A DNA stretch of 44,261 bases. It comes from Escherichia phage vB_Ec-G9. This document shows positions 3,311 to 44,261 of the stretch, piece after piece. Made by a program: the position numbers and the translations under genes. The stretch lies in sequence record PQ433351.1. One strand, 5' to 3'. Each line of letters opens with the position of its first letter. The stretch's first letter is position 1. The notes under the pieces are model-generated. The model saw only the letters and a program-made list of their open reading frames with translations, did no database searches and was not told the origin of the DNA.

Positions 3311-3326
3311 GTCTCACACGTGAGAC
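3311..3326. repeat. palindrome variant GTCTCACACGTGAGAC (copy 2)
   Basis: One central base differs from the perfect palindrome; intergenic. Confidence 0.8.
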
Positions 3327-3465: not shown

Positions 3466-5998
3466 TTGGAAGAAGGAGGCAGAAGGTCGTATCCTCGTGA
3501 TGGATGCGGAAGCTAAAGGACTCCTTGACGCTATCCGATATGGACACCGTGAAGATGTGCATATCATTTGCTGCATGGATTTGCTTACTACCGAGGAGTT
3601 TCTCTTCTTTGACCCGTATGAGATGCGTGACCCTGAAGCAAGAGAACGCCTGAAGGAATGGGAAGGTCATCAAGATGGAACCTTGGTTGACGGTGTTAAC
3701 TTCCTGAAGCATTGTGAAGCTATTGTGTCACAGAACTTCCTAGGGTATGACGGCCTTCTCTTTGAGAAGGCATTCCCTGATATTTGGAAAGGCTTTAACT
3801 ATACCGAGAAGCGCGGTAAGGGCAGACTCCGTGCTGACCTGTGTCCTATCCGTGTTGTAGATACGCTGGTGATGAGTCGTCTGCTAAACCCAGATAGACG
3901 CCTTCCTCCGCAAGCATATGCCAAAGGCATGGGTAACGTCGCCCCTCACTCAATTGAGGCGCACGGCATCCGTATAGGCCGCTATAAACCAGAGAACAAG
4001 GACTGGTCTAAACTAACTGACCACATGGTTCACCGTGTACGTGAAGACGTGGCAATTGGTCGTGACTTTTTCCTATGGCTTTACAACGGAGAGTGGACGG
4101 AGCACAAACGCCGTGGCGTGAACAAACGTACTGGCCTAGGGATTGAGACAGCCTTCCACATGGAGTCCATTGTGGCGCTGGAGATGAGCCGTCAGGCAGA
4201 GCGTGGATTCCGTCTGGATATTGACAAAGCACTAGCGCGATGCGAAGAACTGGACGCTAAGATTGATGAGACAGTCGCAGCGTTCCGCCCTCACATGCCT
4301 ATGCGTATCAAGTCTAAACCTTTTAAACCGGAAGAAAAGAATGAAGTATGCCAACGCGCAAATGAGTATGGAGCTAGCAACAATATACCTACTGTCCTTG
4401 ACCCCTCACACTTTCTTCATGCCGAGAGACGAGGAGATCGCAAGACAGTATGGAGTGTCACTACTAAGTCTGGTGATTGGTCGGCTAGTGTCAAGAAAGA
4501 CTTTCCTCACCTTAGAGGAAACCGTAATGACACGCCAAGCATCAAGTGGATTGGCGCTTACTCGCCTGTTACTTTCGAAGAGATTCCCTTGGGTAACAGG
4601 GATACAGTTAAGCAAGTGCTCTATGATTATGGATGGAAAGGTGTTGAATTTAACGATACCGAGCAAGCGCATCTCGATGAGCACGGAGTGTTACCCAAAC
4701 CTTGGAGTGGTAAGATAAATGAAAAGTCCCTTACTTTATGGCAAGAAAGAGCCGCACGTGAAGGTAAAACAGTCCCTGATTGGTGCTTGGGTATCGCTGC
4801 ATGGTACATACTCGTATCCCGTCGTGGTCAGATACTCAACCGTGGTGACGTTGAAGCCTTCAACGAGAAGGGAACGTGGCCCTCGCAGGCTGGTGTACGA
4901 AAGTGTCGCGGCCTTGTACCTGTAGCATTCAACAAGGAGCTAGGAATCAATGCGCAGCAATACTACGAGAGGTACGGATGTTGGCCTACGTCTGACAAAG
5001 ATGACGGAGAGTGGCGTGTTCCAGCTGTTGCTATTAGCATTGGCACTTCTACGTTCCGTATGCGTCATCGTAACGTGGTTAATATTCCTGCCCGTGGCTT
5101 GTATCCTTTACGTGATTTATTCATAGCAGGGAAAGGCAAGCTAATCCTTGGTTGTGACGGTGCAGGTCTTGAACTGCGTGTCCTGTCTCACTTCATGAAT
5201 GACCCTGAGTACCAAGAGATTGTACTGCACGGTGATATTCATACGCATAACCAGATGAAGGCTGGTCTTCCTAAGCGTGATATGGCGAAGACGTTTATAT
5301 ACGCCTTCCTCTATGGCTCTGGTATAGCCAACCTTGCAGCAGTATGTGGTGTTACTGAGGAAGAAATGAAGGAAGTTGTGGCAAGATTCGAGATTGAACT
5401 ACCATCTCTTGCACGTCTTCGTGAGAATGTTATCGCACAAGGTAACAAGTTTGGCTACCTGCAAGCACCTGATGGACATTGGGGTCGCATCCGCATGTCT
5501 GGTGGTGAACTTAAAGAGCACACGATGCTTAACGTATTACTCCAGATGACTGGCTCTTTGTGTATGAAATATGCATTAGTCAAGGCATTTGCAGTAATGC
5601 GCAAGGAAGGTGTAGCCTTGGATGCTATGGGAAATCCTTGTGGTGTGGCTAACGTGCATGATGAAATCCAGATGGAAGTTCCTGAAGAGGAGGTCTTGTA
5701 TCTTAACTACGACCTACCTTTCACCTTAGATGGGTTCGAAACAGAGAAGGTTGCCGTGAAAGCAGTGTTCGATGCAGAGGAGAAACGTGTTCATGTGGAT
5801 TCTGAAGGACGTATGTGGTCTGCTGCAAACCTAGTTAGTGTTGATGCTGATGCTGGTGTATTGCATTGCCAGCGCCGTTATCACCGTGCAGGTCATATCA
5901 TTGCCGACGCCATGACTTGGGCAGGGCAGTATCTGAAGATGCGTTGCCCGATGGCAGGCGAATATAAGATTGGCGCAAGTTGGAAGGAAACACACTGA
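3452..5998 (+). CDS. family A DNA polymerase with 3'-5' exonuclease domain (T7 gp5-like)
   Basis: Exo motif ILVMDAEA near N-terminus; pol motifs DGAGLELRV, KTFIYAFLYGSG, VHDEIQ; start placed at ATG 3452 (RBS GAGG) rather than ORF-track 3425. Confidence 0.9.
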   Translation: MKTIDWKKEAEGRILVMDAEAKGLLDAIRYGHREDVHIICCMDLLTTEEFLFFDPYEMRDPEARERLKEWEGHQDGTLVDGVNFLKHCEAIVSQNFLGYDGLLFEKAFPDIWKGFNYTEKRGKGRLRADLCPIRVVDTLVMSRLLNPDRRLPPQAYAKGMGNVAPHSIEAHGIRIGRYKPENKDWSKLTDHMVHRVREDVAIGRDFFLWLYNGEWTEHKRRGVNKRTGLGIETAFHMESIVALEMSRQAERGFRLDIDKALARCEELDAKIDETVAAFRPHMPMRIKSKPFKPEEKNEVCQRANEYGASNNIPTVLDPSHFLHAERRGDRKTVWSVTTKSGDWSASVKKDFPHLRGNRNDTPSIKWIGAYSPVTFEEIPLGNRDTVKQVLYDYGWKGVEFNDTEQAHLDEHGVLPKPWSGKINEKSLTLWQERAAREGKTVPDWCLGIAAWYILVSRRGQILNRGDVEAFNEKGTWPSQAGVRKCRGLVPVAFNKELGINAQQYYERYGCWPTSDKDDGEWRVPAVAISIGTSTFRMRHRNVVNIPARGLYPLRDLFIAGKGKLILGCDGAGLELRVLSHFMNDPEYQEIVLHGDIHTHNQMKAGLPKRDMAKTFIYAFLYGSGIANLAAVCGVTEEEMKEVVARFEIELPSLARLRENVIAQGNKFGYLQAPDGHWGRIRMSGGELKEHTMLNVLLQMTGSLCMKYALVKAFAVMRKEGVALDAMGNPCGVANVHDEIQMEVPEEEVLYLNYDLPFTLDGFETEKVAVKAVFDAEEKRVHVDSEGRMWSAANLVSVDADAGVLHCQRRYHRAGHIIADAMTWAGQYLKMRCPMAGEYKIGASWKETH

Positions 5999-6269: not shown

Positions 6270-6530
6270 ATGATTAAATCACAGAAGTATTTCTCAACTA
6301 AAGATCGTAAGGTAGATTTTGAAATCAAAGTTTGGGAAGACGGACACATTACTATTATTTACGAAGGTAAAGGTTCTAATGGTATGATGCTACGTAGATG
6401 CCGTACATTCACAAAGAAAGAATGTATGCATATGTCTGAATGCATGTTTCTTTACATCATTGCTGATGATATTAAAGGTATGAAGCTAATTGTATCTCTA
6501 CCTTTAATACCTAAATCTTTGTTAGGTTGA
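6270..6530 (+). CDS. hypothetical protein (86 aa)
   Basis: ORF with RBS GGAG upstream. Confidence 0.5.
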   Translation: MIKSQKYFSTKDRKVDFEIKVWEDGHITIIYEGKGSNGMMLRRCRTFTKKECMHMSECMFLYIIADDIKGMKLIVSLPLIPKSLLG

Positions 6531-6551
6531 TTTACTGGACACTATAGAAGG
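6531..6551 (+). promoter_or_regulatory. phage RNAP promoter
   Basis: TTTACTGGACACTATAGAAGG. Confidence 0.8.
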
Positions 6552-6616
6552 AAAGCCTAGGTAATCTAGGTTTATAAGGTAGTATGGGTAATTAAGTAAA
6601 TATAGGAGATATAAAT

Positions 6617-6994
6617 ATGTCAATGGTGACTACTCTGGTATTCGTAGCTCAATACTTTCGTGGTTTGGCTAACAAGTTCAAAGCTAAGGCTATCAAAGCT
6701 ATTGAGTCTCGCATTGAAGCAGTACAGGCAGAGCAGTTTGAAGTTGAAGAACATCGTAGTTCTCAAATGATTGACTGCCACAATCGCTACTATGCATCTC
6801 GTGATGACCTTAATGCACGTCAAGTCAAAGAGGTAGAAGAGATGATGGCACGTCACCAGCAAGAGCGAGACAATCTGAAGGCAGACTTTGAAGAGAACAA
6901 AGCATCCATTGCACTGGTACATCAAGCTGCATCTGACAGCCTGAAGAAAGAGATTGTTATGCTGGAGATTGAACTGGACAATCTGACCAAATAA
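6617..6994 (+). CDS. hypothetical coiled-coil protein (125 aa)
   Basis: RBS AGGAG upstream; charged heptad-like sequence. Confidence 0.6.
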   Translation: MSMVTTLVFVAQYFRGLANKFKAKAIKAIESRIEAVQAEQFEVEEHRSSQMIDCHNRYYASRDDLNARQVKEVEEMMARHQQERDNLKADFEENKASIALVHQAASDSLKKEIVMLEIELDNLTK

Positions 6995-8104: not shown

Positions 8105-8120
8105 GTCTCACATGTGAGAC
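8105..8120. repeat. 16-bp perfect palindrome GTCTCACATGTGAGAC (copy 3)
   Basis: Exact; lies 15 bp upstream of promoter at 8136. Confidence 0.9.
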
Positions 8121-8955: not shown

Positions 8956-9896
8956 TAGATGCTGATATGTTACCTTACATCGTCGGGTATACAATCAGTG
9001 ACATGACTTATGTACGAGCTACAACTCGTGTTAAGTCAGGACAAGTCCCATCAATCAAAGATACCCCTGAGTGTAAGCAAGCGTGTGACCGTGTGAACTC
9101 CTTGCTTAACTCTTGGGTGTATGCAGCAGAGTGTGATGCTGCTAAGTTATTCATGACGAAATCAGAAGCTAACTTCCGTGTCCGCCTAGCATTCACCAAG
9201 CCTTACAAGGGTCAACGTAAGACCGAGAAGCCTCCATTCTTCTATGAATTGCGAGAGCATCTCTTAGAGGTTCATGGTGCAATCTTGGCAGATGGAGAAG
9301 AGGCTGATGACCTCATGAGCATTGCACAATGGGACAGCCACCGCCGCTTCCAGCAAGATACAGGTAACGAGTTCCCTATCGGTAGTCCAGAGCATAAAGC
9401 ATTCTCTGATACTTGCATCGTTTCCTTAGATAAGGATTTGATGATTGTTCCCGGTTGGCATCTTCAGCCGGGTCAAGAGAAGAAATGGGTAGAGCCTATG
9501 GGTTGGCTTGAGTTACGCCGTAAGGCTAATGGTCAGGTTAAAGACCTTAAAGGTGCTGGCCTCATGTTTCATTATGCACAGATGATTATCGGTGATGATA
9601 TTGATAACTATGCTGGCATACCTGGACGTGGTGCTAGATACGCCTATGATCTTCTCAAAGATTGTAAGACAGAGAAAGAGTTGTACATGGCAGTGCTTGG
9701 TGCTTACAAGGCTAAGTTCGGACATGGACAAGTTAAGATTAAGAATTACCGAGGGGGTTATCGTATCGGCAAGGCTTTTGACCTGATGCTCGAATGTGGT
9801 CGCCTAGCTCACATGGCAAGATTCAAAGGTGATATATGGCGAGCCGATAAGAACCCAATCTTGTGGGGAGATGATGCGGAATGGTTAGCAAATTAA
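8868..9896 (+). CDS. 5'-3' exonuclease (T7 gp6-like, FEN family)
   Basis: N-terminal IALIDADML and YKGQRK, EEADD motifs parallel T7 gp6 ILVMDGDWL / YKANRK / EGDD; start at ATG 8868 (RBS GAGGAG). Confidence 0.8.
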   Translation: MRPNFDFGATVSEDNNLILWPTEGNRIALIDADMLPYIVGYTISDMTYVRATTRVKSGQVPSIKDTPECKQACDRVNSLLNSWVYAAECDAAKLFMTKSEANFRVRLAFTKPYKGQRKTEKPPFFYELREHLLEVHGAILADGEEADDLMSIAQWDSHRRFQQDTGNEFPIGSPEHKAFSDTCIVSLDKDLMIVPGWHLQPGQEKKWVEPMGWLELRRKANGQVKDLKGAGLMFHYAQMIIGDDIDNYAGIPGRGARYAYDLLKDCKTEKELYMAVLGAYKAKFGHGQVKIKNYRGGYRIGKAFDLMLECGRLAHMARFKGDIWRADKNPILWGDDAEWLAN

Positions 9897-12327: not shown

Positions 12328-13275
12328 ATGAATATCTTTGAGTTCCTAGGTCTTCCAGAAGACCACCGCAATCACCCATTCATGCTGGTGAAGCATCGCG
12401 GTGAAGTTCCTGAGAAGAAATTAACTTTTCCATGTTATGCACAGGTGAAACGAGATGGAATATTCAGTGCTGTTGTGGTGCGCAATGATGGTGCTGTTGC
12501 CATCTTTGGTCGTACTGGTAAGAAGCTCGCAAATGTTGAATCCTTGGAAAAGACATTTAGTTTATTTCCTGTCGGGTTGTATCTTGGTGAGTTGCAATCT
12601 ATGGCTGTTGATGTTTATCTTGAAGCTCTGTCAGGAGTGGTAAACCCTAATCGTACAGAGCCACTTGACTTCATAGGCCAGCAGATTAAAGACAACCTGT
12701 ATATCGACTTCTTCGATATGTTAACTATTAAGGCATTCCATGATGGATTCACTGATGTTTCTTATCTCAAACGTTACGATGCTTTACATCGTCGCATCGG
12801 CGCTCATCTTAGCGGGTACAACGCTATCCTTCCTATTACTCCTTGCCATAATGAGCGAGAAGTTGAAGCGTTTGCGCAAGAGCAGATAGACGCAGGCCGA
12901 GAGGGTGCTGTATTCAAACTGGACTGCGATTATGAAGCAGGCCACAAAGGTTATCGTCAGACTAAAGAAGTCCGTAAGGTAACTTATGACCTTACTTGTA
13001 TTGGCTTTGAAGAAGGTAAAGGTAAGTACAAAGGTAAGGTAGCTAACCTCATTTTCAAATGGAAAGGAGGCAAGACAATCAAAGCTATGTTAGGTAAAGG
13101 GTGGACTCATGCAGATGCAGAACAGATGTTCCACGACATTAAACATGGTGGACGATTGAATGTCATTGGTAAAATCTTTGAAGTCAAAGGTCTTCAGGAT
13201 TCAAGCAAGGGCAACATTCGTCTGCCCAAAGCGGGAGAATTAAGACATGACAAAGATGAACCAGATTTCTTTTGA
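12328..13275 (+). CDS. ATP-dependent DNA ligase
   Basis: Motif I KRDG (AQVKRDGIFS), EGAVFK motif; size and position fit phage ligase. Confidence 0.8.
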   Translation: MNIFEFLGLPEDHRNHPFMLVKHRGEVPEKKLTFPCYAQVKRDGIFSAVVVRNDGAVAIFGRTGKKLANVESLEKTFSLFPVGLYLGELQSMAVDVYLEALSGVVNPNRTEPLDFIGQQIKDNLYIDFFDMLTIKAFHDGFTDVSYLKRYDALHRRIGAHLSGYNAILPITPCHNEREVEAFAQEQIDAGREGAVFKLDCDYEAGHKGYRQTKEVRKVTYDLTCIGFEEGKGKYKGKVANLIFKWKGGKTIKAMLGKGWTHADAEQMFHDIKHGGRLNVIGKIFEVKGLQDSSKGNIRLPKAGELRHDKDEPDFF

Positions 13276-24913: not shown

Positions 24914-24929
24914 GTCTCACATGTGAGAC
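24914..24929. repeat. 16-bp perfect palindrome GTCTCACATGTGAGAC (copy 4)
   Basis: Exact; flanks GCTTG...CAGGT; between the two large internal virion protein genes. Confidence 0.9.
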
Positions 24930-29607: not shown

Positions 29608-31505
29608 TGGCTAAGGCAAGAGAATCACAAGCGGAGGCTCTTGCCAGATGGGAGATGCTACAGGAGTTACAGCAGACCTTTCCTTACACAGCGGAAGGTT
29701 TGCTTCTCTTTGCAGATACAGTTATCCATAACTTGATTGCAGGCAACCCTCATCTGATTCGTATGCAGGCTGATATCTTGAAGTTCCTATTCTACGGACA
29801 TAAGTATCGCCTCATCGAAGCGCCTCGTGGTATCGCTAAGACAACACTATCAGCAATCTATACGGTATTCCGTATTATCCATGAACCGCATAAGCGTATC
29901 ATGGTTGTATCCCAAAACGCCAAGCGAGCAGAGGAAATCGCAGGTTGGGTAGTTAAAATCTTCCGTGGCCTAGACTTTCTTGAGTTTATGCTACCAGACA
30001 TCTACGCAGGGGACCGTGCATCCGTTAAGGCGTTTGAGATTCATTACACCCTACGTGGTAGTGATAAGTCTCCTTCTGTATCCTGTTACTCAATCGAAGC
30101 AGGTATGCAGGGTGCTCGTGCTGATATTATTCTAGCGGATGACGTAGAGTCGATGCAGAATGCTCGTACGGCAGCGGGCCGTGCCTTGCTTGAGGAACTG
30201 ACTAAGGAGTTTGAATCTATCAACCAGTTTGGGGATATCATTTACCTTGGTACACCTCAGAACGTAAACTCTATCTACAACAACCTACCTGCTCGTGGTT
30301 ACTCTGTTCGTATCTGGACTGCGCGTTACCCTTCAGTAGAGCAAGAGCAATGTTATGGCGACTTCCTTGCACCTATGATTGTTCAAGATATGAAGGACAA
30401 CCCAGCACTTCGCTCAGGGTACGGGTTGGATGGTAATAGTGGTGCACCTTGTGCCCCTGAAATGTATGATGATGAAGTCCTGATTGAGAAGGAAATCTCT
30501 CAGGGTGCTGCTAAGTTCCAGCTTCAGTTCATGCTTAACACTCGCATGATGGATGCTGACAGATACCCATTACGCCTGAACAATCTAATCTTCACCTCGT
30601 TTGGTACAGAGGAAGTCCCTGTGATGCCTACGTGGAGTAATGATTCCATAAACATCATTGGTGATGCACCTAAGTATGGTAACAAGCCTACGGATTTCAT
30701 GTACAGACCTGTAGCTCGCCCATACGAATGGGGTGCTGTCTCCCGCAAGATTATGTATATTGACCCTGCGGGTGGTGGTAAGAACGGAGATGAGACGGGT
30801 GTAGCCATCGTATTCCTGCACGGCACATTCATTTATGTGTATCAGTGCTTTGGTGTACCTGGTGGATACCGAGAGTCGTCCCTGAATCGCATTGTGCAGG
30901 CCGCAAAGCAGGCGGGTGTTAAAGAGGTATTCATTGAGAAGAACTTTGGTCATGGCGCGTTTGAGGCGGTAATTAAGCCGTACTTTGAACGAGAGTGGCC
31001 TGTAACTCTGGAAGAGGATTACGCCACCGGACAGAAAGAGTTGCGTATCATTGAGACGCTGGAGCCGCTCATGGCAGCCCATAGGCTTATCTTCAATGCA
31101 GAGATGGTGAAGTCAGACTTCGAGTCGGTACAGCACTATCCGCTTGAACTACGCATGTCCTACAGTCTTTTCAATCAAATGTCGAACATAACGATTGAGA
31201 AGAACAGCCTCCGGCACGATGACCGCCTAGACGCCCTGTATGGCGCTATACGGCAATTAACTTCTCAGATAGACTATGACGAGGTTACACGGATTAATCG
31301 CCTCAGAGCGCAGGAGATGCGCGATTACATCCATGCTATGAACACACCTCATCTACGCAGGGCAATGCTATATGGAGATTACGGTACTGAGCGAAGAGTG
31401 ACCAACACTTCCGTAGCGATGCAGCAGCGAGTTTACGGGCAGAACTACCGAAATAAATCGGCAAGCAGAAATACACTTTCTGCAAGGATTTCAAGGACTT
31501 ATTAA
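29607..31505 (+). CDS. terminase large subunit
   Basis: ATPase motif region GHKYRLIEAPRGIAKTT; size about 630 aa; position. Confidence 0.9.
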   Translation: MAKARESQAEALARWEMLQELQQTFPYTAEGLLLFADTVIHNLIAGNPHLIRMQADILKFLFYGHKYRLIEAPRGIAKTTLSAIYTVFRIIHEPHKRIMVVSQNAKRAEEIAGWVVKIFRGLDFLEFMLPDIYAGDRASVKAFEIHYTLRGSDKSPSVSCYSIEAGMQGARADIILADDVESMQNARTAAGRALLEELTKEFESINQFGDIIYLGTPQNVNSIYNNLPARGYSVRIWTARYPSVEQEQCYGDFLAPMIVQDMKDNPALRSGYGLDGNSGAPCAPEMYDDEVLIEKEISQGAAKFQLQFMLNTRMMDADRYPLRLNNLIFTSFGTEEVPVMPTWSNDSINIIGDAPKYGNKPTDFMYRPVARPYEWGAVSRKIMYIDPAGGGKNGDETGVAIVFLHGTFIYVYQCFGVPGGYRESSLNRIVQAAKQAGVKEVFIEKNFGHGAFEAVIKPYFEREWPVTLEEDYATGQKELRIIETLEPLMAAHRLIFNAEMVKSDFESVQHYPLELRMSYSLFNQMSNITIEKNSLRHDDRLDALYGAIRQLTSQIDYDEVTRINRLRAQEMRDYIHAMNTPHLRRAMLYGDYGTERRVTNTSVAMQQRVYGQNYRNKSASRNTLSARISRTY

Positions 31506-31526
31506 TTACTGGACACTATAGAAGGA
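31503..31526 (+). promoter_or_regulatory. phage RNAP promoter
   Basis: TAATTACTGGACACTATAGAAGGAAGG. Confidence 0.8.
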
Positions 31527-31662
31527 AGGCCCAGATAATAAGAGAAAATAATAGGTAATATATAGGTTAACCTAGGTTATATAGGTATGCCTTAGTATGG
31601 GTGTACTCCTGTACACCCTATTCCTTACTACCTTACTATATTTACATAATAGGAGAGAGACA

Positions 31663-31938
31663 ATGGCTAATGATTATAGTAGTCAACCATTAACAGGTAA
31701 GTCTAAGAGAAAGCAGGTACAACCTGTAAGTGAAGAACTAATGCTTCCGGTACTCCCAAAAGAGGCAGCTAGTAAGAAAAGCAATGTTATTAATGATGCC
31801 ACCAAATCAGGTAAACAGAAAGGGGCCATGGTATGTCTTGAAGTGGACGGTGCATTGCAGATTGCTATCGCGGTTGATGGCAAAGAAGATTCAGAGTGGA
31901 AGTTAGTAACAGTGGGTTCCACTGTTACCCCAGTTTAA
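31663..31938 (+). CDS. hypothetical protein, paralogue 1 of tandem pair
   Basis: RBS AGGAGAG; shares SGKQKGAMV...IA(I/V)A...VTP with next gene. Confidence 0.6.
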   Translation: MANDYSSQPLTGKSKRKQVQPVSEELMLPVLPKEAASKKSNVINDATKSGKQKGAMVCLEVDGALQIAIAVDGKEDSEWKLVTVGSTVTPV

Positions 31939-37669: not shown

Positions 37670-37980
37670 TCAAGTGTCTCGCCCTCGCCCTCGCCGGGTT
37701 GTCCCCATAGGGTGGCCTGAGGGAATCCGTCGAAGACGGGCAGGGCTGATGTCCTCCTTGGCTAGTACAAGGGAAGACCGAGGGAACGCCTAGGACGGCC
37801 TAGGGAATGGTTTAGTGGCGGACAAGGTGATTGCCTTAGTGAAGCCTCTTAGTACATTCCTGAGGCCATTCAGGGCGTTTATGAGGCATTGACAGGGTGG
37901 GCGTGGGTGGGCTATCTGTTCGTTTCGTTCACTCCGCTTGCGCTACGTTCACTCGCTCACGTGTACCTTAGGTTGTTCCT
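37670..37980. other. GC-rich non-coding segment; candidate terminal-repeat / genome-end region
   Basis: No ORF of 60 aa or more on either strand in 37617-38418; composition unlike flanking genes; short direct repeat CGTTCACTC twice. Confidence 0.3.
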
Positions 37981-37990
37981 TGATGGATAG

Positions 37991-38093
37991 CTTAGGTTAG
38001 CCTTAGTGGACTACCTTAGTTATAACCTTAGTGCTTATCTTAGTAATAGCTTAGTAGTGTACCTTAGTAAGTCTTAGTGTCTTCTCTTAGTGA
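37991..38093. repeat. array of about 9 short [CT]CTTAG[GT] heptamer-like repeats at about 12-bp period
   Basis: GCTTAGG, CCTTAGTG, CCTTAGTT, CCTTAGTG, TCTTAGTA, GCTTAGTA, CCTTAGTA, TCTTAGTG, TCTTAGTG; further scattered copies to 38410. Confidence 0.8.
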
Positions 38094-38238: not shown

Positions 38239-38254
38239 GTCTCACATGTTAGAC
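38239..38254. repeat. palindrome variant GTCTCACATGTTAGAC (copy 5)
   Basis: One half-site base changed. Confidence 0.75.
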
Positions 38255-38288: not shown

Positions 38289-38317
38289 TTGACAAGATAA
38301 TCTTAGTGTAATACTAT
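38289..38317 (+). promoter_or_regulatory. host sigma70-type early promoter candidate
   Basis: TTGACA - 17 bp - TACTAT. Confidence 0.55.
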
Positions 38318-38389
38318 GCATCACGTAGGCGGTGCTGAGGCACCTAGTAGCCAGCTAGTAAGGCATACGAAGAGACTAGCGCTTACATT

Positions 38390-40753: not shown

Positions 40754-43381
40754 ATGCAAGACTTACACGCTATTCAACTTCAACTTGAAGAAGAAATGTT
40801 TAACGGCGGTATCCGTCGCTTTGAAGCGGACCAACAGCGCCAGATTGCATCCGGTAATGAATCAGACACGGCATGGAATCGCCGCTTATTGTCCGAGTTA
40901 ATTGCGCCAATGGCTGAAGGTATTCAGGCATACAAGGAAGAGTATGAAGGTAAAAGAGGCCGTGCACCGCGTGCATTAGCTTTCATTAACTGCGTAGAAA
41001 ATGAAGTGGCAGCGTATATCACGATGAAAATCGTTATGGATATGCTGAACACGGATGTAACCTTGCAGGCTATAGCCATGAATGTAGCTGACCGCATTGA
41101 GGACCAAGTACGTTTTAGCAAGCTGGAAGGTCACGCCGCCAAATACTTTGAGAAAGTTAAGAAGTCACTTAAGGCAAGTAAGACTAAATCATATCGCCAT
41201 GCGCACAACGTAGCGGTCGTGGCTGAGAAGTCAGTAGCTGACCGTGACGCTGATTTCTCTCGCTGGGAGGCGTGGCCTAAAGATACCTTGCTACAAATCG
41301 GTATGACCTTGCTAGAAATACTGGAAAATAGTGTATTCTTCAATGGTCAGCCTGTCTTTCTTCGCACCTTGCGCACTAATGGTGGCAAGCATGGCGTTTA
41401 CTACTTACAGACTAGCGAACACGTAGGTGAATGGATAACTGCATTTAAAGAGCACGTAGCTCAGCTGAGTCCAGCCTATGCACCTTGCGTTATTCCTCCG
41501 CGTCCGTGGGTTTCTCCGTTTAATGGTGGCTTTCACACCGAGAAGGTGGCGAGTCGTATTCGTCTGGTTAAAGGAAACCGCGAGCACGTCCGCAAGCTGA
41601 CCAAAAAGCAAATGCCAGCGGTTTACAAGGCTGTTAACGCTTTGCAGGCGACTAAGTGGCAGGTTAATAAAGAGGTTTTGCAGGTAGTAGAGGACGTTAT
41701 CCGTCTCGACCTTGGTTATGGTGTGCCTTCCTTTAAACCACTCATCGACCGTGAGAACAAGCCAGCTAATCCAGTGCCGTTAGAGTTCCAGCACCTGCGA
41801 GGCCGTGAACTTAAAGAGATGCTAACGCCAGAACAGTGGCAAGCTTTTATAAACTGGAAAGGAGAATGTACCAAGCTGTATACCGCTGAAACTAAGCGCG
41901 GAAGCAAGTCGGCGGCGACCGTTCGCATGGTAGGACAAGCGCGCAAGTACAGCCAGTTCGACGCGATTTATTTCGTGTATGCACTGGATAGCCGTTCACG
42001 CGTTTATGCGCAATCTAGCACGCTCTCTCCGCAATCAAACGACTTAGGCAAGGCATTGCTCCGTTTTACCGAAGGGCAGCGTCTTGATAGCGCTGAGGCG
42101 CTTAAGTGGTTTTTGGTGAACGGGGCGAATAACTGGGGTTGGGATAAGAAAACTTTTGACGTGCGCACCGCTAACGTGCTGGATAGCGAATTTCAAGACA
42201 TGTGCCGCGACATTGCAGCCGACCCGCTGACCTTCACTCAATGGGTAAATGCTGATTCCCCTTACGGCTTCCTTGCATGGTGCTTTGAATATGCGCGTTA
42301 TCTGGATGCACTGGATGAAGGCACGCAAGACCAATTCATGACGCACCTACCCGTCCATCAAGACGGTAGTTGCTCTGGTATCCAGCACTATAGCGCGATG
42401 TTACGCGATGAAGTAGGTGCGAAAGCAGTAAACCTTAAGCCTTCTGACTCCCCTCAAGATATTTATGGCGCGGTTGCGCAGGTTGTTATCCAGAAGAATT
42501 ACGCCTACATGAATGCAGATGATGCAGAGACTTTCACATCTGGAAGCGTCACACTTACAGGTGCAGAACTGCGTAGCATGGCTAGTGCGTGGGATATGAT
42601 AGGAATCACTCGCGGCCTGACCAAAAAGCCCGTAATGACACTACCTTATGGCAGCACACGTCTAACCTGCCGTGAATCAGTGATTGATTATATCGTTGAT
42701 TTGGAAGAAAAAGAGGCCCAACGAGCTATTGCCGAAGGGCGGACGGCGAATCCCGTGCACCCTTTTGATAATGACCGCAAAGACTACCTTACACCTGGTG
42801 CAGCCTACAACTATATGACGGCTTTAATTTGGCCTTCTATCTCTGAGGTTGTTAAAGCTCCTATAGTGGCGATGAAGATGATTCGCCAGCTTGCACGTTT
42901 CGCAGCTAAAAGGAATGAAGGGTTAGAATACACCTTGCCAACTGGCTTCATCTTGCAACAAAAGATAATGGCTACCGATATGCTCCGTGTATCCACTTGC
43001 TTGATGGGTGAAATCAAGATGAGTCTACAGATTGAAACTGATGTAGTGGATGAAACGGCAATGATGGGCGCTGCCGCTCCTAACTTTGTTCACGGGCACG
43101 ATGCTAGTCACCTTATATTAACGGTATGTGACCTTGTTGATAAAGGGATTACATCTATCGCAGTAATTCATGATTCTTTTGGCACTCATGCAGGCCGTAC
43201 AGCCGATCTACGCAACAGCTTAAGGGCAGAAATGGTGAAGATGTATCAAGGCCGTAATGCACTGCAAAGCCTGCTAGATGAGCACGAAGAACGCTGGTTA
43301 GTTGATACAGGAATCCAAGTACCAGAGCAAGGAGAGTTTGACCTTAACGAAATCTTAGTATCTGACTATTGCTTCGCATAA
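40754..43381 (+). CDS. single-subunit DNA-dependent RNA polymerase (T7/SP6 type)
   Basis: [39 protein letters not shown] and C-terminal SDYCFA match T7 RNAP catalytic and C-terminal motifs; 875 aa. Confidence 0.95.
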
Positions 43382-43389
43382 TATTAATA

Positions 43390-43420
43390 GGCCATTCCTT
43401 CGGGAGTGGCCTTTCTTTTA
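43390..43420 (+). terminator. strong intrinsic terminator with UUCG tetraloop after RNAP gene
   Basis: GGCCATTCC-TTCG-GGAGTGGCC (9-bp stem, one G.U) followed by TTTCTTTT. Confidence 0.8.
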
Positions 43421-43454
43421 CCTACTACCTGTAACATTTCATTAACATAAACGT

Positions 43455-43470
43455 GTCTAACATGTGAGAC
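43455..43470. repeat. palindrome variant GTCTAACATGTGAGAC (copy 6)
   Basis: Mirror-image variant of copy 5; abuts promoter at 43471. Confidence 0.75.
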
Positions 43471-43495
43471 TTATTTACCGGACACTATAGGATAG
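43471..43495 (+). promoter_or_regulatory. phage RNAP promoter
   Basis: TTATTTACCGGACACTATAGGATAG. Confidence 0.7.
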
Positions 43496-43499
43496 CCGT

Positions 43500-43630
43500 C
43501 GGAGACGGGAAAGAAAGGGAAGATAAAAGGATATAAAAGGAAGTAATAGGTATTAAAGGTTATATATAGGTTTACCTAGGAATACCTATTACCTTCTTCC
43601 TTCCTCTTATTACTACTTAGAGGAAGGGCA
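43500..43630. other. AT-rich imperfect long inverted repeat; candidate replication origin or structured leader
   Basis: Purine-rich arm GGGAAAGAAAGGGAAGATAAAAGGA and pyrimidine-rich arm CCTTCTTCCTTCCTCTT around TATATAGGTTTACCTAGG; sits between two tandem phage promoters just downstream of the RNAP gene. Confidence 0.4.
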
Positions 43631-43640
43631 GATCTAGGTT

Positions 43641-43656
43641 GTCTCACATGTGAGAC
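43641..43656. repeat. 16-bp perfect palindrome GTCTCACATGTGAGAC (copy 7)
   Basis: Exact; 4 bp upstream of promoter at 43661. Confidence 0.9.
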
Positions 43657-43660
43657 TTCG

Positions 43661-43684
43661 TATTTACCGGACAGTATAGATAAG
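43661..43684 (+). promoter_or_regulatory. phage RNAP promoter (variant -5 G)
   Basis: TATTTACCGGACAGTATAGATAAG. Confidence 0.6.
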
Positions 43685-43706
43685 ACTAACTTACTTTGGA
43701 GGTTAC

Positions 43707-44123
43707 ATGCGTAAATCATTAGCTCAAAGAGTAGAGCAAGCAGGTTATACTATACAAGACGACGGCACTATCAAAGGTAAACGAGGTAACACCTTGAAAC
43801 CCTGGCTTCAATCTTCAGGATATCCAGTTGTAAATATAGTATTCAAGAAAGGTACAAGAACAACTACCCTTGTGCATCGCATAATTGCTAGTAAGTATTG
43901 TCCTTGCTCTGACCCATTGGCTAATGATGTAAACCACAAAGACGGAAACAAGACTAATAATGCAGCTTCTAATCTTGAATGGATTACACGTAGGCAGAAC
44001 CGTAATCACTATTTAGGTTTTGAGGACTATATGATACTTACGGCAGATGATGCCCGTAAGAAGAATAATGAGCGCACTATTGCTCGACGTAAATTACTTA
44101 AACAGTTGAATAATAAGGATTAA
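43707..44123 (+). CDS. HNH homing endonuclease
   Basis: LVHRIIASKY ... VNHKDGNKTNNAASNLEW; RBS GGAGG. Confidence 0.8.
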   Translation: MRKSLAQRVEQAGYTIQDDGTIKGKRGNTLKPWLQSSGYPVVNIVFKKGTRTTTLVHRIIASKYCPCSDPLANDVNHKDGNKTNNAASNLEWITRRQNRNHYLGFEDYMILTADDARKKNNERTIARRKLLKQLNNKD

Positions 44124-44125
44124 TT

Positions 44126-44257
44126 ATGCGTACTAACTTTGAGAAGATGACCCGTAAAGCTAACCGTTTTGACATGGAAGAAGGGCAGAAGAAAGGCAAG
44201 AAGCTGAACAAACCTGTCCGCGACCGTGCATCTAAACGCGCTGCGTGGGAGTTCTAA
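44126..44257 (+). CDS. hypothetical small basic protein (43 aa)
   Basis: RBS AAGGA 6 nt before ATG 44126; directly upstream of primase/helicase start. Confidence 0.4.
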   Translation: MRTNFEKMTRKANRFDMEEGQKKGKKLNKPVRDRASKRAAWEF

Positions 44258-44261
44258 GTTA

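Follow-up and report, generated by a model that had tools for sequence, protein, structure and literature searches.

How an SP6-group phage might begin to replicate its genome is the question raised by an untranslated stretch of Escherichia phage vB_Ec-G9 (sequence record PQ433351.1), which lies directly behind the phage RNA polymerase gene and holds two phage promoters, here called P1 and P2, with an AT-rich repeat element between them. We analysed the whole 44,261-nucleotide sequence, referred to below as the window; positions are those of the window, and the features described lie on the + strand unless otherwise stated. The window comes from a Vectrevirus genome (K1E/K1-5, SP6 group) of about 44 kb and is circularly permuted. 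We propose that the region is the SP6-group version of the T7 control region between gene 1 and gene 1.1, most likely doubling as a transcription-activated replication origin, and we hold this reading tentatively, at a little short of an even chance. The proposal draws on the anatomy of the region, its positional orthology with T7, its conservation among relatives and the physical signature of its DNA, each of which was observed directly and is described below.

Judged by its flanking genes, the region is the positional counterpart of the T7 interval between gene 1 and gene 1.1 that holds the promoters phi1.1A and phi1.1B. Upstream lies the gene for the single-subunit phage RNA polymerase, the equivalent of T7 gene 1 (40754-43381; an open reading frame (ORF) of 875 amino acids (aa) matching Pfam RNA_pol and RPOL_N). 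The small gene after P2 is a homologue of T7 gene 1.1 (44126-44257), encoding a basic protein of 43 aa that matches Pfam Phage_1_1 (PF08200, E = 3.5e-15) and is 54% identical to T7 gp1.1. Because the small gene is a gene 1.1 homologue and the RNA polymerase gene lies upstream, the region is positionally orthologous to the T7 primary origin. According to PMC8373140, which cites Rabkin and Richardson 1988, the primary origin of T7 is phi1.1A/B and its secondary origins are phiOR and phi6.5; the same paper states that T7 turns to the secondary origins once the primary one has been deleted. The initial annotation had suggested a comparison with the phi1.1A/1.1B organisation, and this was borne out by the same flanking genes, the two promoters and the presence of the least stable duplex after a promoter.

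The physical signature of the region was assessed with T7 as a positive control, in which nearest-neighbour duplex stability was calculated over the 80-100 bp that follow each annotated promoter of T7. Five T7 promoters (phiOL, phi1.1A, phi1.1B, phi6.5 and phiOR) gave a z of at least 3.5, and the other twelve gave 2.7 or less. Low stability thus picked exactly the reported origin promoters plus phiOL. When the same measure was applied to the window, P1 was the extreme of the genome (z = 3.4), followed by the promoters at 6529 (z = 3.2) and 31503 (z = 3.0), and the other six promoters reached at most 2.0. P2 scored only 1.7, and an easily melted downstream segment is therefore a property of P1 and not of P2. 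The least stable 100-bp duplex of the whole genome, at 43520-43619 and 72% A+T, lies between the two promoters, and the most purine-rich 50 nt (43501-43550, 88%) lie in the same interval. We regard the region as the best candidate in this genome for a transcription-activated origin, with confidence that falls just below the midpoint.

The stretch downstream of P1 is built from repeats. P1 itself (TATTTACCGGACACTATAGG, 43472-43491) belongs to a set of nine phage promoters in the window and is conserved in relatives; by analogy with the SP6 promoter, transcription would start at the G at 43490. From that start, positions +7 to +19 of the transcript form a 13-nt 5' hairpin (CCGTCGGAGACGG, 43496-43508). 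Next comes a purine-rich array (43509-43580) in which a unit of about 10 bp with (A/T)AGG at its end occurs seven times. The AGG triplets begin at 43516, 43528, 43538, 43548, 43557, 43568 and 43578, which gives spacings of 12, 10, 10, 9, 11 and 10 nt over 43516-43580, or several direct repeats in helical phase. This run of seven is the longest in the window, and 200 dinucleotide-preserving shuffles of the genome never exceeded five; the program TRF reported a period of 10 with a score of 42. The array overlaps an imperfect inverted repeat (43537-43598), in which arms at 43537-43554 and 43581-43598 surround TTATATATAGGTTTACCTAGG. The 18-nt arms are 89% complementary, the whole spans about 62 nt, and the right arm, CCTATTACC, repeats the array unit GGTAATAGG in inverted orientation. 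Immediately downstream is a second hairpin (43599-43627) of 9 bp, in which CCTTCCTCT and AGAGGAAGG flank an 11-nt loop.

This anatomy modifies the description from which we started, which had envisaged an AT-rich imperfect inverted repeat of roughly 130 bp with purine-rich and pyrimidine-rich arms. Each feature named in it was present, at the given position or a few bases from it, and the AT-rich stretch is real. The 130-bp extent does not hold, as the true arms measure 18 nt and are accompanied by a separate 9-bp hairpin, and the outer purine tract at 43509-43536 has no complementary partner. The inverted repeat had been overstated, and the direct phasing of the (A/T)AGG units is the stronger regularity. 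Two candidate coding functions were also rejected: a hidden small ORF within the array, where the + strand carries stop codons in all three frames, and a 47-aa ORF on the - strand (43576-43719), whose start lies inside the variable HNH insertion.

In the mechanism that we propose, host RNA polymerase would halt at the UUCG terminator, and the phage RNA polymerase, once made, would initiate at P1. P1 has no gene of its own; its transcript would cross the 5' hairpin and then the phased array with its inverted copy, where the duplex is least stable. Transcription through this easily melted segment would open the DNA, and phage DNA polymerase would then extend the P1 transcript itself or, alternatively, primers that the neighbouring primase/helicase synthesises on the displaced strand, as at T7 phi1.1A/B. 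P2 would meanwhile express gene 1.1 and the primase/helicase gene, together with the HNH gene inserted here. We infer from this combination of features that replication starts at the element and is primed in one of these two ways. Two + strand motifs of the T7 type (G/T)(G/T)GTC flank the element (GTGTC at 43452-43456 and TTGTC at 43638-43642); the site rule, as given in PMC12839067, is that of the T7 primase, and the motif is a common one.

The likeness to the T7 primary origin comprises the same flanking genes, two tandem phage promoters, a promoter placed directly before one of the least stable duplex stretches of the genome and, upstream of the promoter facing the AT-rich segment, a hairpin that is similar in sequence. 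The hairpin in question is the intrinsic terminator found by the terminator scan at 43389-43420, where a 10-bp stem with a UUCG loop (43389-43412) is followed by TTCTTTT; it had been placed at 43390-43420 in the initial annotation. In a local alignment, its 3' half and flank resembled the T7 hairpin between phi1.1A and phi1.1B, with 26 of 31 positions identical between GAGTGGCCTTTCTTTTACCTACTACCTGT in the window and GAGTGGCCTTTATGATTGACCTTCTTCCGGT in T7 (regions 43389-43432 and 5863-5905, respectively). That score was reached by 20 of 500 shuffles, and with such marginal statistical support the homology is only suggestive. If the two hairpins are homologous, P1 would correspond to phi1.1B and the array to the T7 AT-rich origin segment. 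The resemblance also hints that a terminator in one lineage may correspond to a processing hairpin in the other, as the T7 hairpin is one that we take to be the RNase III site R1.1.

The two regions also differ. Here the AT-rich segment lies between the promoters, and a strong terminator precedes the element, whereas the T7 early terminator TE lies 1.7 kb further on. The window has seven phased (A/T)AGG repeats with an inverted copy, whereas the T(T/A)AAG motifs of the T7 leader are unphased (spacings 13, 9, 25 and 23). Conserved palindromes flank the element here, and its origin activity is putative. T7 has no counterpart of these palindromes, of the invariant 5' hairpin or of the phased array and its inverted copy, all of which are lineage-specific additions. 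The region is nevertheless not a new kind of system, and nothing in it would greatly surprise a specialist in the T7 group.

We also considered whether the role of the region lies only in RNA. The element would then be a structured 5' leader or a processing site for the replication-gene operon, like T7 R1.1, with hairpins that determine where transcripts end, how stable they are or how they are translated, and the origin would lie at another site. We consider this explanation a serious rival, though less probable than an origin. The predicted fold of the P1 transcript contains a 21-bp irregular hairpin (5+12+4 bp) at 43537-43598, together with the 9-bp hairpin and the 5' hairpin, and an irregular hairpin of at least 20 bp can be formed from the array and the pyrimidine tract in each lineage. 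The + strand RNA fold was more stable than that of the - strand in eight of ten lineages, with more G-U pairs on the + strand (31/309 versus 16/278). The middle pair of the 5' hairpin is G-C, A-U, C-G or U-A across lineages, so that all four Watson-Crick pair types occur at one position. Like T7 R1.1, the hairpin lies in an untranslated stretch between two promoters after gene 1, and Dunn and Studier are said to have placed, in 1983, the T7 RNase III site between the two post-gene-1 promoters. That hairpin is itself visible in the T7 sequence. It resembles the window terminator, however, and not the array hairpin, which is built from repeat units and is known here from predicted folding.

Several observations fit poorly with a role confined to RNA. 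Folding z-scores were modest, at -3.1 for the + strand RNA, -3.7 for the - strand RNA and -4.7 for DNA, and from -1.9 to -3.2 in most lineages. When Vectrevirus and Zindervirus were aligned jointly, the consensus fold of the long hairpin was only weak (-11.4 kcal/mol; covariation term -0.7), and the idea of one conserved RNA structure there was set aside. Within Vectrevirus, two of the three substitutions seen in the arms break pairs. No Rfam family scored above its gathering threshold; the best matches, at 17-23 bits against thresholds of 70-85, were plant microRNA precursor families and one Streptococcus small RNA. A hairpin also leaves the 10-bp phasing and the direct repeats unexplained. 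Finally, P2 already provides the downstream genes with a short leader, and an RNA-level role does not account for a separate P1 with 190 nt of untranslated RNA.

The phasing itself suggests another alternative, in which a phage or host protein binds the (A/T)AGG repeats and their inverted copy, on the DNA or on the P1 RNA, and either regulates P2 and the replication genes or recognises an origin of iteron-like rather than T7-like character. Five to seven direct repeats at helical spacing, together with an inverted unit, are kept over several genera as the spacer sequence drifts, and the AGG run is unique in the window and was never reached in shuffles. All positions of the 5' hairpin other than the middle pair are invariant save one loop base, and this invariance beyond pairing, seen also in the palindromes, points to sequence-specific recognition as well as pairing. 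As in iteron-type origins (lambda ori and the Rep-dependent origins of plasmids and phages), direct repeats in helical phase stand beside an easily melted segment and include an inverted copy. Classical iterons, however, measure 17-22 bp, and the units here are of about 10 bp with a conserved core of three or four bases, far short of that class. Their spacing shifts by one to two bases between close relatives, and the array lies inside a transcribed leader. No recognisable initiator gene or candidate binding protein was found, the neighbours being the HNH, gene 1.1 and primase/helicase genes, and we know of no need for an initiator protein in T7-group replication. On balance we consider such a protein-binding array unlikely.

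A broader form of this idea extends beyond the array. The promoter, the invariant 5' hairpin CCNTCGRAGANGG and the phased array with its inverted copy may together form a module of the SP6 group (Molineuxvirinae) that is absent from T7 and is recognised sequence-specifically by a phage or host factor, either as DNA in iteron-like fashion or as a discrete, untranslated P1 RNA of about 170 nt. Weaker arrays without the hairpin, at 6529 and 31503, would be secondary sites, and the covarying 16-bp palindromes would belong to the same recognition system. We judge this proposal improbable as a whole. A second copy of the 5' hairpin motif, CCGTCGAAGACGG, was observed at 37727-37739, in a purine-rich stretch about 50 bp from the inferred left end of the genome. 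In SP6, no copy of the motif was found outside the P1 leader.

Conservation of the region was examined among relatives. A nucleotide search with 461 bases spanning the element matched about 100 phage genomes, with 90-97% identity to the locus in Vectrevirus genomes (K1E, K1-5, VEc3 and others) and about 70% in SP6-like Salmonella phages and Klebsiella phages; over the non-coding part, SP6 itself matched at about 72%. The order of terminator, palindrome, promoter, 5' hairpin, AGG array, pyrimidine tract, palindrome (in some cases), promoter and gene 1.1 was present in Vectrevirus, Zindervirus (SP6, UAB_Phi78 and BP12B), Acadevirus PM93, Axomammavirus PP1 and the unclassified Klebsiella phage Kp7. 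Gene 1.1 at the end of this order is seen in PP1; in PM93 an HNH gene follows P2, and in Kp7 a small gene does. The Eracentumvirus phages Era103 and Nifs112 have two palindromes and one promoter, followed by the array. AGG arrays of three to seven units occurred in all Molineuxvirinae examined, and a hairpin with a TTCG, TCCG or CTCG loop, on stems of differing sequence, occupied the terminator position in all relatives examined. The phage K1-ULIP33 was considered as a natural deletion of the element and discarded, as its architecture is normal.

These comparisons bear on whether the region has any function, since it could be a chance AT-rich spacer or debris of HNH mobile-element traffic left between two promoters. 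HNH genes have indeed been inserted beside or inside the region in several lineages, and in Salmonella phage PST_H2 the 5' coding part of the NUMOD4 ORF itself carries AGG at spacings of about 9 nt. The intergenic segments are nevertheless about 68% identical to SP6, whereas identity at four-fold degenerate sites is only 41% for the RNA polymerase gene and 54% for that of the primase/helicase, and this excess indicates purifying selection on the region. Several genera share the architecture, none of 200 shuffles produced an AGG run of this length, and stop codons occur in all three frames of the array. As the region is conserved, we regard an absence of function as very improbable.

Other observations weigh against an origin at this site. 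PST_H2, isolated as a viable phage, carries a gene insertion inside the element (at 2409-2848 of its own sequence, a split NUMOD4 and HNH_3 gene after the third or fourth repeat), which shows that the phage can do without an intact, contiguous inverted repeat. The AT-rich segment is placed between the two promoters and not after both, and the P2 start is only about 26 nt away from the next gene. AT-rich AGG leaders also follow the promoters at 6529 and 31503; the signature thus occurs at other sites too, and may be no more than the mark of a class of mRNA leaders. The P1 transcript is purine-rich and would favour R-loops, a property without counterpart at T7 origins. The position of the T7 RNase III site between the promoters makes RNA processing a live alternative. 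The keto-skew minimum lies inside the DNA polymerase gene (window 4776), and Dobbins et al. 2004 suggested, from skew, an SP6 origin in that gene, as reported in PMC4837284; this was the only published suggestion that could be traced. In the searchable literature, no experiment that maps an SP6-group origin came to light, and nothing relevant on transcription maps of Molineuxvirinae.

Two measures were set aside as guides to the origin. The minimum of detrended cumulative GC skew falls close to the region, 0.4-0.8 kb to its right, in the window (about 218) as well as in SP6 (6690), which gives the origin weak support. The T7 skew minimum, however, falls at 9537, and the known origin at 5.9 kb. 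Cumulative skew was therefore treated as uninformative, because the same method misses the T7 origin by 3.6 kb. R-loop propensity, calculated from the stability of the RNA:DNA hybrid versus the DNA duplex, was rejected as an origin signature, as T7 origins do not stand out by it; the P1 leader ranked second in the window at 60 nt. Taken with the evidence above, the interpretation of the locus as an origin is partly supported, and the observation of origin-like architecture that prompted it is confirmed.

The leaders at 6529 and 31503 share features with that of P1. Shorter (A/T)AGG arrays at about 10-nt spacing occur at 6547-6625, after the promoter at 6529, and at 31521-31665, after the promoter at 31503, and the syntenic SP6 leaders (about 12557-12635 and 37790-37935) also carry shorter AGG arrays. 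Both leaders are among the least stable duplex stretches of the genome. With 89% identity to SP6, the leader at 6529 is conserved far better than neutral sites, and that at 31503 has a pyrimidine-rich inverted part and a hairpin in which the sequence differs between the window and SP6 and the pairing is kept. A promoter with a low-stability leader is also what characterises the T7 secondary origins phiOL, phi6.5 and phiOR, although the sequence motifs differ from those of the window. The promoter at 31503 lies just after an ORF that aligns with the SP6 terminase large-subunit gene, as phiOR lies after that of T7. These two promoters may be secondary sites of the genome. Both leaders end directly in ribosome-binding sites, an arrangement that favours an RNA-level role.

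Each of the two promoters in the region is preceded by a palindrome, as the initial annotation had noted. Palindrome 1 (GTCTAACATGTGAGAC, 43455-43470) lies 1 nt upstream of P1 and has one mismatch to a perfect palindrome; palindrome 2 (GTCTCACATGTGAGAC, 43641-43656) lies 4 nt upstream of P2 and is perfect. They belong to a family of 16-bp palindromes with eight dispersed copies in the window, against 0.23 expected by chance, the remainder being at 599-614, 2167-2182, 3311-3326, 8105-8120, 24914-24929 and 38239-38254. SP6 has nine copies (493, 6093, 6264, 7071, 8547, 9383, 14255, 17752 and 30569), mostly syntenic with those of the window, with GTCYAACRYGTTGGAC as a compensating variant. In other genera, one or the other of these forms is present, and relatives have a genus-specific variant at the position of palindrome 1. 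Three intergenic copies form part of longer hairpins of 13 bp, with covarying flanks and a U-rich tail behind them, and three bare copies lie 1-14 nt upstream of phage promoters. On the + strand, six of the nine SP6 copies have a U-G arrangement and one has C-A, a bias that suggests + strand RNA hairpins. Such behaviour of the dispersed copies, with G-U pairs, is a further point in favour of a role at the RNA level. No paper containing the palindrome sequence was found in the searchable literature.

Nine phage-promoter matches were found in the window, versus none expected by chance, and the two in the region are at 43472 and 43661, where 43471 and 43661 had been claimed. The other seven read CACTATAGAAG and start with GAAG; P1 instead starts with GGA, and P2 (TATTTACCGGACAGTATAGA, 43661-43680) has the non-consensus CAGTATAGAT. 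P2 is conserved in relatives, and SP6-like phages have CACTATTGAA at its position. It lies about 190 bp downstream of P1; its transcript probably begins at the G at 43679, and P2 would drive the downstream replication genes. The promoter scan found no sigma-70 promoters on the + strand of the region. A conserved 20-nt block, CCTGTAACATTTCATTAACA (43428-43447), lies between the terminator and palindrome 1 and occurs once in the window. It is nearly invariant in Vectrevirus and Zindervirus-like loci and absent from those of PM93, Kp7 and PP1, and no obvious promoter or ORF was found inside it.

Downstream of P2, the HNH homing-endonuclease gene (43707-44123; Pfam HNH_3, PF13392; phrog_959) is, by comparison of gene orders, a lineage-specific insertion between P2 and gene 1.1, because the MRNFEK gene, the gene 1.1 homologue, directly follows P2 in most relatives. 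An HNH gene occupies this place in the window, VEc3, PhiNW-E1 and UAB_Phi78, and only VEc3 and PhiNW-E1 matched the 461-base query over its full length. In Nifs112, as in PM93, an HNH gene lies directly downstream of the element. The intergenic region is thus a hot spot for homing-endonuclease genes. The order of an HNH gene followed by the primase/helicase gene had been described correctly as far as it went, the gene 1.1 homologue between them having been missed. The primase/helicase gene (domains Toprim and DnaB_C) starts across the window junction, where the A at 44261 and TG at 1-2 form the start codon (A + TGGCTATTATT... = MAIIQNVPCPAC), and it continues at 1-1988.

Additional features were observed near the physical left end of the genome, which lies near window position 37680 and thus some 5.8-6.0 kb from the candidate origin region. 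CTTAG is repeated ten times at spacings of 10-13 bp, with one gap of 24 bp, at 37967-38090, upstream of a strong sigma-70-like promoter (TTGACA, a 17-nt spacer and TAATAC; about 38290-38318); 14 of the 55 + strand copies in the genome fall within 430 bp near this end. ATCTGTT, presumably the T7 concatemer-junction class II pause and termination signal, occurs at 37914-37920 within GGGCTATCTGTTCGTTT in the terminal-repeat region, and the same sequence is present at the SP6 left end. Separately, the GenBank record of the SP6 RNA polymerase gene (Y00105.1, 2759 bp) is labelled 'Lederbergvirus Sf6', which looks like a taxonomy error.

If the element is confirmed as an origin, it would, to judge from the literature found, be the first to be mapped in the SP6/K1-5/K1E group, and would supersede the location in the DNA polymerase gene that was derived from skew. 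A transcription-activated origin in the interval from the RNA polymerase gene to gene 1.1 would then date from before the T7 and SP6 groups diverged. If the element is only a leader, the finding is an ordinary one. SP6-group phages serve as therapeutic agents against K1 E. coli, Klebsiella and Salmonella, and synthetic biology draws on them for SP6 RNA polymerase. Knowledge of the origin would help in engineering their genomes, in cell-free rebooting and in designing plasmids whose amplification depends on the phage. Experiments would be most worthwhile on the phased array and the covarying palindromes, which together with the invariant 5' hairpin point to sequence-specific factors not yet described in this group of phages.

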